DNA of 64,000 bases, taken from a virus. The notes under the pieces were generated by a model. That model was not told the DNA's origin. It searched no databases and saw only the letters and a program-made list of their open reading frames with translations. Below are positions 4,001-52,656 of the stretch, in pieces. The stretch lies in IMG/VR virus record IMGVR_UViG_3300043411_000704, positions 1-64,000 of that record; one strand, written 5' to 3'. The position numbers were made by a program, and so were the translations under genes. Each line of letters starts with the position of its first letter. Position 1 is the first letter of the stretch.

Positions 4001-4036
4001 AAAAACCGGTAGTAGATGCATCTACTACCGGTTTTT
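4001..4036. terminator. Bidirectional terminator, perfect 36-bp palindrome
   Basis: aaaaaccggtagtagatg|catctactaccggttttt between convergent gene blocks. Confidence 0.85.
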
Positions 4037-6625: not shown

Positions 6626-6937
6626 TTATCGTTTTTGTGGTTCTAGATATTCATCAGTATATACTATTTCAAATTCATCAAATGGACACCATTCACCGTC
6701 AATACGTTCTTCACCAGGAGAACAAAATGCATTCTCATTTGGATTATCTGTGCAAACACGAGTTCCTACAAATACTGCGCCCAAACAACCTGATGGATCA
6801 GTCAATTCATTTTCATATTCGCCGACAGTCATTCGTCGAACCCTATATTCATTATCTTCATAGAGTGCTTCTGTTCCTTCCTTGAACCATTGATCAGGTT
6901 TCGAAATAAATTTCACATATTTTAGTATATCAACCAT
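6626..6937 (-). CDS. Hypothetical protein
   Basis: ORF; ATG at 6937 preferred. Confidence 0.6.
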   Translation of the reverse strand: MVDILKYVKFISKPDQWFKEGTEALYEDNEYRVRRMTVGEYENELTDPSGCLGAVFVGTRVCTDNPNENAFCSPGEERIDGEWCPFDEFEIVYTDEYLEPQKR

Positions 6938-6938
6938 A

Positions 6939-7073
6939 TTATTTAAAATTTCCAAATCCTACCATTCCCGATGGCCTATGTGGTGATTGTTGCGCATTGG
7001 TTAATAATGCATTTAACAACTTTGCTTGTTGAATTTGTATCCGTAATTGACGTATTTTATTTTTGGTGTTCAT
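6939..7073 (-). CDS. Small hypothetical protein
   Basis: ATG overlapping the upstream stop. Confidence 0.4.
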   Translation of the reverse strand: MNTKNKIRQLRIQIQQAKLLNALLTNAQQSPHRPSGMVGFGNFK

Positions 7074-25189: not shown

Positions 25190-25743
25190 TTGCTAGCTAA
25201 TTTGTAAATGTATTTCATTTTAGTTTCGTCACCAAAATATTGTTCCAATTCTTCACCATTTTTGACCAAAATTTGTGTATTACTTGGATCAGTTTCGTCT
25301 AATACATATACTTGTAGTTTAGAATCATCTGCAAACGATTTCCATAACAAAAACCCTTTTGGGGTGTGAATACTATCAGATTTGACGTATTCAAAATTAT
25401 CCAACAAGAATTCAGTATATATCTTATACATTATAGAACCTATTTGTCCCGAATTCCAAATATACATTATAGTAACACCACCATCATCTTGGACCTCTAA
25501 TTCAATATATCCAATGACCAAGGAATTATCCTGAACTAGGTAAAATTCTATATAAGAATCAAACTGAAACATTTGCACATTAATGGTGTTACCATTAATG
25601 TGCAAATCCTCTACTGGCTGCAAATTGTCGTGATGTTTATGCCATTTATTCTGGAAGTCAGATGCATTAACTTTGATTGGTCGCGCCCTTGTTGACATCT
25701 CCATTAATATCTTTTTAATCAGTTTATCAAATTTTTCGGTCAT
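25186..25743 (-). CDS. Hypothetical protein, possible GNAT-like fold, with MTEKFDKLI...E N-terminal peptide
   Basis: SDSIHTPKGFLLWK motif; N-terminal motif shared with late genes. Confidence 0.6.
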   Translation of the reverse strand: MTEKFDKLIKKILMEMSTRARPIKVNASDFQNKWHKHHDNLQPVEDLHINGNTINVQMFQFDSYIEFYLVQDNSLVIGYIELEVQDDGGVTIMYIWNSGQIGSIMYKIYTEFLLDNFEYVKSDSIHTPKGFLLWKSFADDSKLQVYVLDETDPSNTQILVKNGEELEQYFGDETKMKYIYKLASK

Positions 25744-32011: not shown

Positions 32012-32029
32012 GACACATATTTATCAAAT

Positions 32030-32058
32030 AAAAATGCCGGTGGATTAATCCACCGGCA
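32030..32058 (-). terminator. Rho-independent terminator after hsp20
   Basis: Perfect 24-bp palindrome tgccggtggatt|aatccaccggca plus T-tract on the minus strand. Confidence 0.85.
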
Positions 32059-32076: not shown

Positions 32077-32529
32077 CTATTGAACTTCAATCTTTTTGAT
32101 CACTGGTTCAACCTTTTGTGTCTTGGGAATCGTAATTTTCAACATCCCATCCTCAAATTTAGAACTCAGACCATTTTCTTCACCTTTATCAATAATATCC
32201 CATTTCCATTTACGGGATTTATGTGAAATACTTTGCTTGAAATACTTCACATCGTCCCGTTTAGTTGTGCCATTGACTTCGACATTAAGATAACCGTCTT
32301 GAACAGTTACTACAATATCCTCTTTCTTATGACCTGCAAGGGGGATATCAATATAAAATTCTTTATCTGTTTCAGATAAAGAATAATCCATTGGATAATC
32401 CACCTTTACGTTCAAGAATCTATCCAGATAGGAATCTGAAAAGAAACTATCAAATACTTTATCTAATTCCCCAAAAACCCCAAAACCGGATGTCTTCGGC
32501 CAATATGTTGTGTTTATTAGTTTACTCAT
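32077..32529 (-). CDS. Small heat-shock protein Hsp20
   Basis: LAGHKKEDI.V, FEDGMLKITIPK, KKIEV. Confidence 0.92.
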   Translation of the reverse strand: MSKLINTTYWPKTSGFGVFGELDKVFDSFFSDSYLDRFLNVKVDYPMDYSLSETDKEFYIDIPLAGHKKEDIVVTVQDGYLNVEVNGTTKRDDVKYFKQSISHKSRKWKWDIIDKGEENGLSSKFEDGMLKITIPKTQKVEPVIKKIEVQ

Positions 32530-36974: not shown

Positions 36975-37003
36975 ATTATAGTCTATGTGTTTTAGTGTGT
37001 CAA
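36975..37003 (-). promoter_or_regulatory. Consensus sigma70 promoter TTGACA-17-TATAAT
   Basis: ttgaca cactaaaacacatagac tataat, 9 nt before ATG 36965. Confidence 0.85.
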
Positions 37004-37218: not shown

Positions 37219-38553
37219 TCACATTATATATAGCATTTCTCGTGGTCTTGTGCAAGAGGTATAAAAAATACGTTTTTGTTCATCAATATTCTGATTTAAT
37301 CTGATGTCTGTATAGACAACAAAACAATTGGTGTAGGTGCTCCCTTGGGCTCGATGCCCAGTGATTGAATAATTGAATCCCACGTCTGAGAAATTATCTT
37401 GGAAGCCGAAATATTTACCCCATTTTTGACCTCTACGAACCGCTTCTTTTTCACTTTTTGCATCGTCCGCCAGTTTTTTCAATACCTGTTGGTATATTTT
37501 TTGAGACTTTTCATGTAAAATATGAATATTATGTGCCTCTTCTTCGGATTCAACTGCTGCATCATAATAATGAAACTGATGCCCGTATAATTCTTTCTGG
37601 CTAACGGTTAATCCTAATACTTCAAGGTCTTCATTTGTATTATATAATATTTCATCTGGTGAATCTCCTTTGATCGGTCGATTCACCACCAGTTTTTCAC
37701 CGATCACAATTTTGGGTGCATTCATACCGTATTTCATACCCCGTATAAGTTGGTTAAAATTATCAACCACCACATTTCTCCAACTAATGACCTTACAATG
37801 ATCTGCATTGTTATCAAATTCGGTTGAACAGAAATAATGTTTTAACAACGTGTTAATAACCTCTGGTTGATTTTTATTCAAAATCGCAACACCTTGGTGA
37901 TCAATCACATTTTTTTGTCCAATATTAAACTGAAATTCATTTTTTAAAATTTGTTGAGAAGTCTCAATAATAGGATTACCCTTTGCCTGTCTAACAATTT
38001 CAGTCAATTCATATTGTTTAATCCCATATTTTTCTCTCTGATCCTCCAACATAGGAATCGAATGTTCGTGATTAACCGGATTAATCTGATTTTTATCACC
38101 AATGAATATAATTTTCACACCCCGATAATTCTGATCTTCCATCTCATGGAACAATTCGTCTGCCAACATAGAAGACTCGTCTACAAAGATAATATCATAT
38201 AGTGCAAATTTTGATGGACTACTTTTATCTCTTTCATACACTTCTTTACCGTTGTTAGTGATCTTATGTTTTAGACCTAGTAATGAATGAACTGTTGTGA
38301 ACTTGACCCGTGCCTGATCTTCTGGAGAAAACATCTGTTTAATCACACGCAGGGCTTTATTTGTGGGGGAAATCACTGCAATATTATTATGAGCCGCCTC
38401 ATTGATAATTTTACTAACTAATTGAGTAGTTAGTAACGATTTACCGCTACCAGCAGGTCCATTTAATAGTGCCTTATGGTAGTCTTGATCACCCTGGACA
38501 AATTTCCAAAGGTTATCAAATATCGGTTGTTGATGTTCTGTTAGTTTTATCAT
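37219..38553 (-). CDS. dda: Dda-like SF1B helicase
   Basis: GPAGSGKS, PTNKA, TVHSLL, DESSM, GDKNQI, EIVRQ, HRAQGST, YTSCTR; start MIKL at 38553. Confidence 0.9.
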   Translation of the reverse strand: MIKLTEHQQPIFDNLWKFVQGDQDYHKALLNGPAGSGKSLLTTQLVSKIINEAAHNNIAVISPTNKALRVIKQMFSPEDQARVKFTTVHSLLGLKHKITNNGKEVYERDKSSPSKFALYDIIFVDESSMLADELFHEMEDQNYRGVKIIFIGDKNQINPVNHEHSIPMLEDQREKYGIKQYELTEIVRQAKGNPIIETSQQILKNEFQFNIGQKNVIDHQGVAILNKNQPEVINTLLKHYFCSTEFDNNADHCKVISWRNVVVDNFNQLIRGMKYGMNAPKIVIGEKLVVNRPIKGDSPDEILYNTNEDLEVLGLTVSQKELYGHQFHYYDAAVESEEEAHNIHILHEKSQKIYQQVLKKLADDAKSEKEAVRRGQKWGKYFGFQDNFSDVGFNYSITGHRAQGSTYTNCFVVYTDIRLNQNIDEQKRIFYTSCTRPREMLYIM

Positions 38554-40341: not shown

Positions 40342-40968
40342 TTATGATTTGATCATGATTTTTTGACCACGAATGGGTTGGTTTTCCTCATATAGTTTCT
40401 TAAACTTATCTTTTCCGATTCGATAAAATTTCATTGCTTCTTTTTTAGAATTGAATTCCTTACAAATTCCTTTGGTATAAATCGAATATGTGCTAGATGG
40501 TAGAAGTTTGCCACTATCTAGATAGTGTCTGACGACATGGGACGGAACACTTAAATCAACCAATAAGTGCTGTCTCTTCCTATAAAATTTCTCTTCCCCT
40601 TTCTCTGAAACAACAACAAATTCTTTATCAGAAGATATAGAATTATATTGCACAGTTAGCAATGTTTCGGATGAAACATATTGATAATAATGTTTATACC
40701 ATCGTCTACCATCGTGCATACTATTATATAGTGCTCCGTTATAACTCACATATTTTTGTATAATGGTTTTTTTATTAGAAAACCCTTTTTTGATAAAAAA
40801 ATCTCGCACTGCTTGATTTCTATTTTTATAAACGGCAATTACATTGCCGTTATCGTCTAATTTAGCAACATGATACTGGTCCAAACAACCAGATTTTTCG
40901 GCCTCATGGTTAGCTTTAATCACTTTGTTTTTTATTTCGTTCATATAATTATGTTGGAATTCCTCCAA
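40342..40968 (-). CDS. NUMOD1-like DNA-binding repeat protein (homing-endonuclease-related); start uncertain
   Basis: V.KLDDNGNVIAVY..RNQAVR and KEFNSKKEAMKF modules; no nuclease motif seen. Confidence 0.55.
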   Translation of the reverse strand: MEEFQHNYMNEIKNKVIKANHEAEKSGCLDQYHVAKLDDNGNVIAVYKNRNQAVRDFFIKKGFSNKKTIIQKYVSYNGALYNSMHDGRRWYKHYYQYVSSETLLTVQYNSISSDKEFVVVSEKGEEKFYRKRQHLLVDLSVPSHVVRHYLDSGKLLPSSTYSIYTKGICKEFNSKKEAMKFYRIGKDKFKKLYEENQPIRGQKIMIKS

Positions 40969-41009
40969 TTTTATTCTTTTAGTTAAATCTTTTTCTGGAA
41001 TTCATATAT

Positions 41010-41441
41010 TTAACATAAATCAATGGGTATTTCACCGGTTTTAGTTGATTTTGATGCTAATTTATCACAATAATTATTCCAATGGTTGAGTGGATCATGA
41101 CCCTTCAACCAGCACAGTCTAATATTTTCATTAATCATCGGACATAATTCATCCCACATATCTATGTTCGCTCTTTTCTTCCAGCCTTCCATAATAGTAT
41201 TCACCACATATTTTGAATCACTGTAAATTGTTGTATCCCAATCATGTTCAATCTTTTTGATTGCCTCCATAACTGCCTTGATCTCCATTCGATTGTTAGT
41301 CGTATTCTTCATCCTACCATATCCATCAACTATCAGTTGATCATTATCATCAACAATAGCATATGCATACCCACCTATATTATGGGCTCCTCTGGTGTTG
41401 AAATCACATGCACCATCTGTATAAATTTTTACTTTCTTCAT
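41010..41441 (-). CDS. rnhA: Ribonuclease HI
   Basis: YTDGAC, TTNNRME, YSDSKYV, W.KGH, NNYCDKLA. Confidence 0.95.
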   Translation of the reverse strand: MKKVKIYTDGACDFNTRGAHNIGGYAYAIVDDNDQLIVDGYGRMKNTTNNRMEIKAVMEAIKKIEHDWDTTIYSDSKYVVNTIMEGWKKRANIDMWDELCPMINENIRLCWLKGHDPLNHWNNYCDKLASKSTKTGEIPIDLC

Positions 41442-41553
41442 TATCTAAATTTAACCCAATCTAAACAACAAATCAAGCAAAATCTTCAAATTCAGCATCA
41501 AAAACACGCTTTTTCAGCTTAATATTTAGTAAAAGATTGTAAATATATAATTG

Positions 41554-41814
41554 TTATCAGGTGGTTATGAGGAAGAGAGAATAGGAATTCCCTTCCTGGC
41601 GAAACTCTTTGAGTTTTTATAGACAAGAAGTTATCCTACTCTCTTCCAAATGTAACCTGATAAATCAGTATGGCCCCATCGGAATCCAGTCTAAGTTTTG
41701 ATGGGTAAATTTGGAAATCCCCTTGACCAGTCGAGCGGTTGATCCCCTTCCGTATCAACACTAAATTTATATGTAAACTAATGGTGATCCATTTTATTGG
41801 ACGAAGTATTAGTT
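41554..41814 (+). ncRNA. Putative structured RNA or origin element (four stem-loops)
   Basis: Stems 41554-62/41655-63, 41571-79/41639-47, 41675-83/41697-705, 41706-14/41761-69, 41776-82/41808-14; TAAATA at 41540-45. Confidence 0.55.
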
Positions 41815-41901
41815 AAGTTCTATTTAAACAGATTCGAAATACGATTGCAAGTTTTTTCTTCATCCATTGTAAACTTTTTTTCTCTGTATAAATAAATTTC
41901 G

Positions 41902-42348
41902 ATGACACCAAAATTTGACGAATTATATACCCAATTAATGGAAGACCTTTCACAACAAGGAAAAGGATTGTTGGCCAATCAGGGAGGTGGAGGATCACCA
42001 GCCAATAATTCGTCAAAGCCTATTACAGCGCCTTCTACTAGTTCCGCACCAGCAGTCAAGCCTGCAACCAATCTATCAGGTCAAAAGCCTTTAAACAGCA
42101 CACAGCAAGATTTTGGGGTATTGTTACAAGATCCGAACGATAATACAGCAGCAGATGCGGTATTGAATCATTTGACTACTAATAATATTGATTTTAACGA
42201 TCCTAAATTTGCAGAAACACCTGAAGGACAGGCAATAGGACAAAGAATTCAAAAAAATCCTAAATTTGCAGATGCACTAGATCAGGCACAACAGCGATTG
42301 ATTGCCGGTGCATCAGATGCAACTAAACAAGCATTTGCAACACAATAA
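41902..42348 (+). CDS. Putative internal virion protein (low complexity)
   Basis: TATAAATA at 41887-94; MTPKFDELYTQLME N-terminus. Confidence 0.7.
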   Translation: MTPKFDELYTQLMEDLSQQGKGLLANQGGGGSPANNSSKPITAPSTSSAPAVKPATNLSGQKPLNSTQQDFGVLLQDPNDNTAADAVLNHLTTNNIDFNDPKFAETPEGQAIGQRIQKNPKFADALDQAQQRLIAGASDATKQAFATQ

Positions 42349-42388
42349 TATCATACATAATCCACTATCATTTTGTTAAATAATGTGA

Positions 42389-43063
42389 ATGACCAAGAAT
42401 TTTGACGTATTATATAATAGAATAATTGCAGAAGCAGCAGATGATTCTGAATTACCGGATTTTGGTCAGCAACAAGATCAAGGTGGTGATACCCAAATGG
42501 ATCAAGGATTGGCCGATCTTTCGCCTGATGAATTAGGTATGGACGAATCCAAACCAGTTCCACCCGAAGAACTAGAATTGGCACATTTGGCAATCAGGGC
42601 AGTAAATTTTGACATTAAATCTAAAGATGTTCATCAATATGGATTTCAGGATAATACGGGCAATAGAATATCATTTGAACAGATTCCTTCATATTTCGAA
42701 GAAACCAAAGACTGGAGACGTGTATTAAAGTTTATTGAATGGTTGATCAATAAATTTGAAGGTGTTAATTCTCAATGGGCAGAAGAACAGGAATTAAAAG
42801 GGAAGAATATTTTACAAAAAATAAGTATTATTAATCGAAAGAATAAGGCAAATCCTGAACTACAGTTGGATAATTCTAAACGGCTGGTTTGGACTCGTAT
42901 TATTTTGAATGCACTCATTAATTCAGATTCTTCTATGAACATTATTGGTTCGGATATTGATGAAAAGAGTTTACCTGATATATTCAATCAACTTAAACAG
43001 AATTTTATGCACAGTTCAACCGGATTATTCGCCAATAAACCAGTTCACCCAATCAACAATTAA
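42389..43063 (+). CDS. Putative internal virion protein
   Basis: TAAATA at 42377-82; MTKNFDVLYNRIIAE N-terminus followed by an acidic linker. Confidence 0.7.
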   Translation: MTKNFDVLYNRIIAEAADDSELPDFGQQQDQGGDTQMDQGLADLSPDELGMDESKPVPPEELELAHLAIRAVNFDIKSKDVHQYGFQDNTGNRISFEQIPSYFEETKDWRRVLKFIEWLINKFEGVNSQWAEEQELKGKNILQKISIINRKNKANPELQLDNSKRLVWTRIILNALINSDSSMNIIGSDIDEKSLPDIFNQLKQNFMHSSTGLFANKPVHPINN

Positions 43064-52598: not shown

Positions 52599-52622
52599 TA
52601 AGCATATACAAATAATAAAGTT

Positions 52623-52656
52623 AAAACGCAAAGAAGTCAAATTCTTTGCGTTTTTT
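52623..52656 (+). terminator. Rho-independent terminator
   Basis: aaaacgcaaagaa/ttctttgcgtttt plus T-tract. Confidence 0.8.

Follow-up and report, generated by a model that had tools for sequence, protein, structure and literature searches.

A candidate structured non-coding RNA in the gene-free spacer at the major strand switch of an uncultured T4-like phage

Results

Gene layout around the spacer

The window analysed here, meaning the whole stretch of 64,000 nucleotides, comprised the first 64 kb of an 80,256-nt IMG/VR record with a completeness of 31% (CheckV) and a genomic G+C content of 34%. Judging from its genes, the source is a deep-branching uncultured T4-like phage, which encodes a gp43-type polymerase with ~31% identity to the polymerases of cyanomyophages and Melnitz, together with UvsX, a gp41-like helicase, Dda, SbcC/D-like nucleases and a gp55-like late sigma factor (phrog_234, 2.4e-18). 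Genes were on the minus strand between ~4 and 41.4 kb and on the plus strand between 41.9 and 64 kb. Between both sets, a spacer of 460 nt was found at 41442-41901, which was the largest true gene-free gap in the 80 kb of the record and marked the point where a minus block of 37 kb gives way to a plus block of 22 kb, with replication-gene blocks flanking it on both sides. A previous reading of this DNA, made from the sequence only, had pointed to a 460-nt intergenic region beside an RNase H gene where gene orientation diverges, and this layout was confirmed, with rnhA to the left and ORF148 to the right. The features of the locus were the following:

41010-41441, minus strand: rnhA, encoding an RNase HI of 143 aa (Pfam RNase_H PF00075, 1.4e-23), left neighbour of the spacer
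41416-41426, plus strand: copy of TCTGTWTAAAT inside the rnhA coding region
41448-41476, minus strand: sigma70-like promoter candidate TTGATT-N17-TAAATT from a pattern scan, 6 nt before the rnhA ATG
41523-41528, minus strand: orphan TAAATA box facing rnhA, a hexamer only, which may be due to chance and whose leader would be ~74 nt long
41540-41551, plus strand: overlapping TAAATA (41540-41545) and TATAAT (41546-41551) just 5' of the rod, candidate promoter of the putative RNA
41554-41664, plus strand: bulged rod of 111 nt with helices of 9, 3, 9, 5, 4(+3) and 7 bp, taken as the 5' domain of the putative RNA
41587-41595, plus strand: AUUCCCUUC, carried by the inner 5' arm of the rod and with its CUUC paired to GAAG at 41627-41630
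41675-41705, plus strand: hairpin 2 (CCCAUC/GAUGGG), with a G-U extension on the plus strand only
41717-41724, plus strand: first copy of AUCCCCUU, predicted to be unpaired
41738-41759, plus strand: hairpin 3 (GUUGAU/AUCAAC), whose loop holds the second AUCCCCUU (41742-41749), positional counterpart of the terminator hairpin of the relative L009
41760-41775, plus strand: tail ACUAAAUUUAUAUGUA, rich in A/U and proposed as a weak 3' end for the RNA, resembling by eye the L009 tail CGUUUUUGUAUGUGUA
41776-41814, strand unassigned: hairpin 4, outside the unit common to the relatives
41821-41832, minus strand: TCTGTTTAAATA, box facing inward (leftward)
41822-41832, minus strand: copy of TCTGTWTAAAT
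41883-41894, plus strand: TCTGTATAAATA, phage-type promoter, 7 nt ahead of the start of ORF148
41883-41893, plus strand: copy of TCTGTWTAAAT
41902-42348, plus strand: ORF148, right neighbour of the spacer, with no family match

The search for tRNA and tmRNA genes found none. Likewise, the spacer had no convincing ORFs, and none of its ORFs appeared on the record as a called gene. A 23-aa ORF with a TTG start at 41551-41622 on the plus strand (MLSGGYEEERIGIPFLAKLFEFL), which begins 5 nt past the TAAATA box and runs across the rod's 5' arm, is probably spurious. This ORF was also the sole candidate in a check for type I toxin-antitoxin systems, and it had no hydrophobic stretch of transmembrane length. 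Moreover, no intrinsic terminator (a GC-rich stem followed by a U-run) was called within 41300-42000, and such an identity was thus rejected for the element. Canonical GC-rich intrinsic terminators with U-runs were observed at 4001-4036, 32035-32058 and 52618-52650; the phage therefore uses ordinary terminators elsewhere, which makes their absence from the spacer notable.

Folding of the rod and of the 3' hairpins

The sequence-only reading had described a bulged rod of ~110 nt, and each of its four stem pairs was recovered where that reading had located it. The rod had a folding energy of -40 kcal/mol and was far more stable than shuffled controls, both strands behaving alike (z-scores of -5.55 on the plus strand and -5.63 on the minus strand, about -5.5 in either case). 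It also folded as single-stranded DNA (z-score of -4.9) and, when the record was scanned in windows of 110 nt, placed among the first three on each strand. Structure of similar strength (z-scores below -5) was present in about nine further windows, mostly corresponding to terminators and to perfect hairpins inside genes. Within coding regions, very stable hairpins with z-scores from -5.7 to -6.4 were observed at 25511-25620 and 32211-32320 (minus strand), at 38411-38520 (plus strand) and at positions 64691-64800 of the record (plus strand), two of them having perfect stems of 13-17 bp. In the rod, perfectly paired blocks alternated with unpaired blocks, and it presented no U-tract. Furthermore, no paralog of the rod was found in the 80-kb record, where it was present as a single copy.

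With regard to the strand, it had been proposed that G-U pairs favour the plus strand as the RNA. This held in the counts, with three G-U pairs in the rod on the plus strand versus one on the minus strand at equal energy, and in the whole 265-nt core, with folding energies of -75.1 on the plus strand (z-score of -3.95) versus -70.1 on the minus strand; however, the signal was weak, the stability of the rod being equal for the two strands.

The three further hairpins noticed downstream of the rod were present in the minimum free energy fold, but none of them exceeded chance individually (z-scores of -1.2, -0.96 and -2.5 for hairpins 2, 3 and 4, respectively). Considered jointly, they folded at -34.9 (z-score of -1.4) on the plus strand and at -27.5 (z-score of +0.6) on the minus strand. 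The repeated word ATCCCCTT was found at 41717-41724 and 41742-41749, as had been reported, and three out of the four ATYCCCTTS words of the window appeared inside the core. In addition, the densest cluster of C4 runs of the record was located in the core, which constituted a GC-rich island (47% of G+C at 41665-41764, within the top 0.5% of all 100-nt windows).

Promoter boxes and start sites

A total of 83 copies of TAAATA were found in 80 kb, of which 27 were located within 20 nt upstream of called starts, mostly 6-7 nt before them. At 22 called start codons, some of them GTG, this hexamer preceded the start by 4-10 nt (mode 6-7), as at 2195, 42377, 43402, 57923 and 61117 on the plus strand and at 32023 and 35071 on the minus strand. 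Messages from these phage-type promoters would be almost leaderless, to judge from this spacing. Shine-Dalgarno use gave no signal, GGAG appearing in 1 out of 88 upstream regions. Promoters of the TTGACA-N17-TATAAT type were observed to end 7-9 nt before the starts at 37003, 6323 and 2183 (minus strand) and 43073 (plus strand); as these sigma70-type promoters abut start codons, early messages look near-leaderless too. The sigma70-like candidate upstream of rnhA followed the spacing rule seen at the other promoter-proximal genes.

In the spacer, four TAAATA boxes formed two back-to-back pairs, one comprising 41528 (minus) and 41540 (plus) and the other 41826 (minus) and 41889 (plus). The inward-facing boxes announced by the sequence-only reading were indeed found at 41540-41545 on the plus strand and at 41821-41826 on the minus strand, as bare hexamers facing each other over 263 nt with the core between them. 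Start sites would fall 1-3 nt before the rod on the plus strand and before the complement of hairpin 4 on the minus strand, and the +1 of the candidate RNA would lie at 41551-41558. Three of the four boxes were orphans, compared to 0.43 expected from the rest of the intergenic DNA, which is suggestive, it being kept in mind that the composition of the AT-rich flanks alone predicts ~1-2 copies by our estimate. The promoter weight matrix carried no information outside the hexamer, and the orphan boxes can therefore not be ranked. Finally, exact copies of TCTGTWTAAAT appeared only three times in 64 kb, all of them within 480 nt at this locus, and this motif could represent an extended promoter or a protein-binding box.

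Recurrence of the spacer in two distant relatives

Close relatives, searched by DNA or protein, were found neither among INPHARED phages nor in IMG/VR, the JGI metagenomes or the GTDB genomes. In the protein collection, close matches reached identities of 82%, 74% and 61% for rnhA, at least 90% for ORF148 and ORF224, and 91% for the exonuclease. Several of these proteins co-occurred on contigs of 12-243 kb, and in particular the relatives of ORF148 with at least 90% identity shared contigs with the relatives of rnhA. Pattern scans of IMG/VR with the rod stems and the pair of CCCCTT words returned chance matches only. The spacer was compared among three genomes, namely the window, the relative L335, which was reached in IMG/VR through an alignment of exonuclease homologs (A2), and the relative L009, which was first obtained for a partial RNase H and then shown to encode the same exonuclease. 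The identities of L335 to the window were 48% for Dda, 47.5% for ORF224, 44% for the exonuclease and 56% for the oxygenase, and those of L009 were 41% for ORF224, 32% for the exonuclease, 51% for the oxygenase and 52% for the rnhA fragment. On the basis of these values, L335 and L009 are classed as family-level relatives, with 30-56% protein identity in syntenic genes.

Both relatives presented ORF-free spacers at the same divergence point (524 nt in L335 and 523 nt in L009), and in all three genomes the spacer had AT-rich flanks and a phage-type box located 5-7 nt before the first right-hand gene. The left neighbour differed, being a sugar-epimerase-like gene in L335. The adjacency to rnhA was not kept, as L335 had no rnhA within the 20 kb around its spacer and in L009 an additional ORF separated the spacer from rnhA. 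Thus, the functional coupling to the adjacent rnhA that had been suggested for the element found no support, and the location of the spacer beside RNase HI turns out, from this comparison, to be lineage-specific. As for the enzyme itself, the columns D9, E53, D75, H115 and D126 of RNase HI were invariant in the alignment A1, its closest cellular kin were enzymes of Chloroflexota and Phycisphaerae (35-42% identity), and the distant RNase HI loci inspected showed no synteny. ORF208 (40342-40968, minus strand), which lies next to rnhA in the left block, had a homolog with 43% identity at L009:733-1341, in the opposite block. Going by the loci compared, gene order near the switch is fluid, yet the spacer persists.

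A long rod occupied the centre of each spacer, being 111 nt long in the window, 89 nt in L335 (z-score of -3.4) and 109 nt in L009 (z-score of -8.3, and -10.0 for the other strand). Moreover, on the exonuclease-sense strand each of the three spacers contained three C4 runs and no G4 runs, and CCCCTT appeared two, one and two times in the window, L335 and L009, respectively, versus 0.03-0.09 expected and none in antisense. The P-values of this excess in the two relatives were 0.04 and 0.004, while the conservation of the strand in three out of three genomes had by itself a P-value of 0.25. The octamer CCCCTTCC had a single copy in the 80-kb record and a single copy in the 20-kb locus of L335, in both cases inside the spacer. 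All three spacers carried a C-rich word close to the apex of the rod, within its inner 5' arm, where CUUC or CUUAC is predicted to pair with GAAG or GUAAG, the counterparts of the window motif being CCCCUUCCCC with GGAGAAG in L335 and CCCCUUACCCC with GGAGUAAG in L009. A second C-rich word appeared in the loop of a short hairpin located 75-100 nt downstream. In L009, this 3' CCCCUU hairpin was called as an intrinsic terminator in the exonuclease sense (CTGCGGTGCCCCTTAGTGTGCCGCAG followed by a T-run), and the 3' domain folded at -38.3 in that sense versus -24.4 on the opposite strand. The combination AAAAGATT...TATAAT...TTAT(C/G)AGG was found upstream of the L009 rod as well. In L335, a direct repeat, CAGTTTTGAACCT, was observed at L335:6790-6803 and 6908-6921, flanking the rod, with a weaker third copy near 6972.

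At the level of alignments, the match between the window and L009 spanned the left flank and the rod with a z-score of 3.1 against shuffles and is considered marginal. The outer helices in this comparison (UUAUCAGGU/ACCUGAUAA and UUAUGAGGU/ACUUCAUAA, window vs. L009) showed one compensatory change from C-G to G-C and one change from G-C to G-U. The alignments of the window with L335, and of L335 with L009 in the same sense, were at noise level; the best alignment between the latter two ran in opposite orientation, which can happen with quasi-palindromic rods. The alignment of the three rods with MAFFT and RNAalifold was uninformative at such divergence, the MAFFT alignment being non-structural and the consensus fold hence meaningless. 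Covariance models built from single sequences gave no significant match: the rod model R1 ranked the L009 rod first and on the right strand with 11.5 bits and an E-value of 0.5, both R1 and R2 missed the L335 rod, and the model of the 3' domain (R3) missed L335 and L009. Consequently, the models built from the window alone having no significant matches, the case for homology is built on synteny, shared architecture, the statistics of the motifs, a single marginal alignment and a single compensatory pair. In the comparison with syntenic regions of related phages that the sequence-only reading had proposed, the spacer, the rod, the bias in C runs and the CCCCTT words thus recurred in L335 and L009, but the covariance models were non-significant.

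Compositional skew and stability of the flanks

A check of the GC skew had also been proposed. The skew changed sign at the spacer, and it also tracked gene orientation at the other two strand switches. In a regression of GC skew per gene, orientation contributed a term of 0.097, the residual side term amounted to 0.056 (CI 0.035-0.081) and the best split was at 42 kb. Although both the sign change and the split thus fell at the spacer, they were confounded with gene orientation and gene class. In particular, the residual term rests on two small blocks of the other gene class in a record that is 31% complete, so that gene class explains it equally well; the late-gene blocks were the only discordant skew data. 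Hence, the pattern fits an origin near the spacer and a weaker skew in the late-gene blocks equally well. The flanks had 24-26% of G+C and ranked only within the top 2-6% of least stable windows by duplex stability, with many sites being less stable. They were unexceptional as unwinding elements, and the inward boxes faced the GC-rich core. Furthermore, no iterons were found beyond the three TCTGTWTAAAT boxes.

Discussion

A non-coding RNA as the preferred reading

The reading that we prefer, with a probability of roughly 50%, is that the spacer encodes a non-coding RNA of ~220 nt on the plus strand (~41552-41775), as part of a small and so far uncatalogued family that this lineage maintains at its major strand switch. 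Transcription would proceed from the TAAATA/TATAAT boxes at 41540-41551. The RNA would open with the 111-nt bulged rod, whose inner 5' arm would present the CCCUUCC motif paired to GAAG, and would continue with a variable middle hairpin and the unpaired AUCCCCUU, ending in a short hairpin that would expose the second AUCCCCUU in its loop, followed by the A/U-rich tail. The exposed C-rich loops may pair with G-rich sites in other RNAs or bind a protein. Among the elements of this reading, the stability of the rod, the lack of coding potential and the recurrence of the spacer, the rod, the C-run bias and the CCCCUU words in two relatives, one of them with a terminator, are observations, and we infer from them the transcription of the RNA, its ends, its strand and the action of its C-rich loops. 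The position of the 3' end in the window, where no terminator was called, is likewise only inferred. The terminator of L009 and the sense-specific folding of the 3' domain suggest a short discrete RNA. On the other side, the strand symmetry of the rod, the lack of a called terminator in the window, a promoter reduced to a hexamer and the non-significant models count against the RNA. The idea of an undescribed phage non-coding RNA put forward by the sequence-only reading has thus survived, and gained strength, as a structured non-coding element with no Rfam family that recurs in two relatives, but not in the 6S-like or anti-Shine-Dalgarno versions considered below.

Weighing of the alternatives

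An origin element of the T4 type would also account for several of these observations. In this case, a promoter in the spacer would give rise to an R-loop that primes the leading strand, the rod on the displaced strand would act as a loading or priming structure, and RNase H, from whatever locus encodes it, would trim the primer. The spacer is situated at the major divergence point between two replication-gene blocks, just as T4 oriE, oriF and oriG occupy divergence points with compositional shifts (PMC3016281), and it stays at the switch in the relatives although the neighbouring genes change. The rod folds as single-stranded DNA, a leftward transcript would be rich in G4 runs, and both the residual skew term with its split at 42 kb and the AT-rich flanks are in line with an origin. 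However, gene class accounts for the skew term equally well, the flanks are far from being the least stable sites, and downstream of the inward boxes lies the GC-rich core instead of an unwinding element. Together with the scarcity of iterons and with the features of L009 that suggest a short discrete RNA, this makes an origin element unlikely in our view. Both readings could also be combined, the conserved rod RNA, structured and driven by a promoter at the divergence point, being the origin transcript: it would seed an R-loop, RNase HI would cut it back to a replication primer, and an antisense RNA from the inward box would perhaps check it, following a ColE1-like logic within a T4-like phage; we regard this combination as rather improbable.

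The region could instead be purely cis-acting, with the two back-to-back promoter pairs serving rnhA and ORF148 and the rod acting within long leaders or antisense transcripts, not as a stand-alone RNA, but as an insulator, an RNase III site or a stem that stabilises the 5' end. The four TAAATA boxes, with their orphan excess, and the clustering of every exact TCTGTWTAAAT copy of the window would agree with such an arrangement, as would the strand symmetry of the rod. Moreover, with no terminator called in the window spacer, plus-strand transcripts would run into ORF148 and minus-strand transcripts into rnhA. Nevertheless, nearly all other genes start 4-10 nt after the promoter box and are leaderless, so that a leader of 350 nt would be exceptional. 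As the rod and the motifs remain in the relatives with different neighbours, and a terminator follows the unit in L009, a purely cis-acting role appears quite improbable. A lack of any function, with the imperfect palindrome and the C-rich words deriving from a duplication or a mobile element and the gap being gene-free merely through its divergent promoters, is in our opinion very unlikely. It would agree with the ~9 other windows having z-scores below -5, several of them in genes, with a rod that has no paralog or database homolog and with the non-significant covariance models. Against it, the alternation of perfect and unpaired blocks differs from what a palindrome decaying at scattered positions would show, the core forms a GC-rich island, and the rod, the C-run bias and CCCCTT recur in relatives at 30-56% protein identity.

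Implications

The novelty of this analysis, as far as the three genomes compared here indicate, is the presence of ORF-free spacers with a rod and C-rich motifs at the same switch in two distant relatives. If the non-coding RNA is real, it would represent one more uncatalogued family of structured phage RNAs, in a deep-branching T4-like lineage; gene expression in this phage appears to dispense with Shine-Dalgarno sites and almost entirely with leaders. Its fixed place between replication-gene blocks, while the neighbours shuffle, ties the element to the genome architecture; given this position at the divergence point, direct tests can decide between a trans-acting RNA and an origin transcript. 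In addition, the conserved CCCCUU words offer a handle for target searches once the host is known.

Comparison with known systems

The comparison with catalogued RNAs gave no candidates. No Rfam family matched the spacer in a cmscan of 41000-42400 at E<=10, none reached its gathering score over the whole window, and RF01718 (Polynucleobacter-1) had no candidate in the 80-kb record at E<=10. Retrons were rejected as there was no reverse transcriptase. The PeSLs of T4-type phages are multi-copy cassettes that combine a strong sigma70 promoter with a terminator stem-loop (Arbiol et al. 2010, PMC2839356). They resemble the present element in having a promoter box followed by a stem-loop in the intergenic DNA of a T4-type phage; however, a PeSL cassette was discarded, as the element was present in a single copy in 80 kb, no terminator was called and the rod had no U-tract.

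Regarding replication origins, the T4 sites oriE, oriF and oriG are found where transcription diverges and base composition shifts (Kreuzer and Brister 2010, PMC3016281). T4 origins consist of a promoter and a downstream A+T-rich element, with an R-loop that is probably processed by the phage RNase H, and in oriF(uvsY) and oriG(34) the ~100 bp comprise a middle promoter and an A+T-rich unwinding element with no conserved structure (PMC3016281). The spacer shares with oriF and oriG the divergence point with a compositional switch, the promoter boxes pointing into the element and the vicinity of replication genes and of an RNase H gene. In contrast, its centre is GC-rich and structured, and its boxes are of the phage late type. 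The ColE1 RNA II/RNA I system is similar in its convergent promoters around a multi-hairpin region, predicted in the present case, and in the RNase H theme. It differs in that no Rfam match was obtained at E<=10, plasmid antisense RNAs included, the convergent promoters are bare hexamers here and the adjacency to RNase H is not conserved.

The 6S RNA, which forms a rod of ~180-200 nt with a large central bubble mimicking an open promoter, has its rod-like fold in common with the element. The 6S-like polymerase decoy suggested by the sequence-only reading was nevertheless dismissed, as no 6S model matched at E<=10 and the rod of 111 nt has small internal loops only, with no large central bubble. 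Its other suggestion, an sRNA directed against Shine-Dalgarno sites, fared no better for the genes of the phage itself: in addition to the single GGAG among 88 upstream regions, no AAGGGG was found near any start, and the C-rich words had no phage targets near start codons. Finally, RsaE/RoxS-type sRNAs differ in that there was no sequence or model match here, and in that the element is phage-encoded and has no G-rich targets near phage starts; these RNAs are also not known to carry a 111-nt rod. They have in common with the candidate RNA the repeated unpaired C-rich words, which here correspond to AUCCCCUU in a loop and in a single-stranded segment, one copy being likewise placed in the 3' hairpin. 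Such unpaired C-rich loop words are present in the element by prediction, and copies of them are kept in both relatives.
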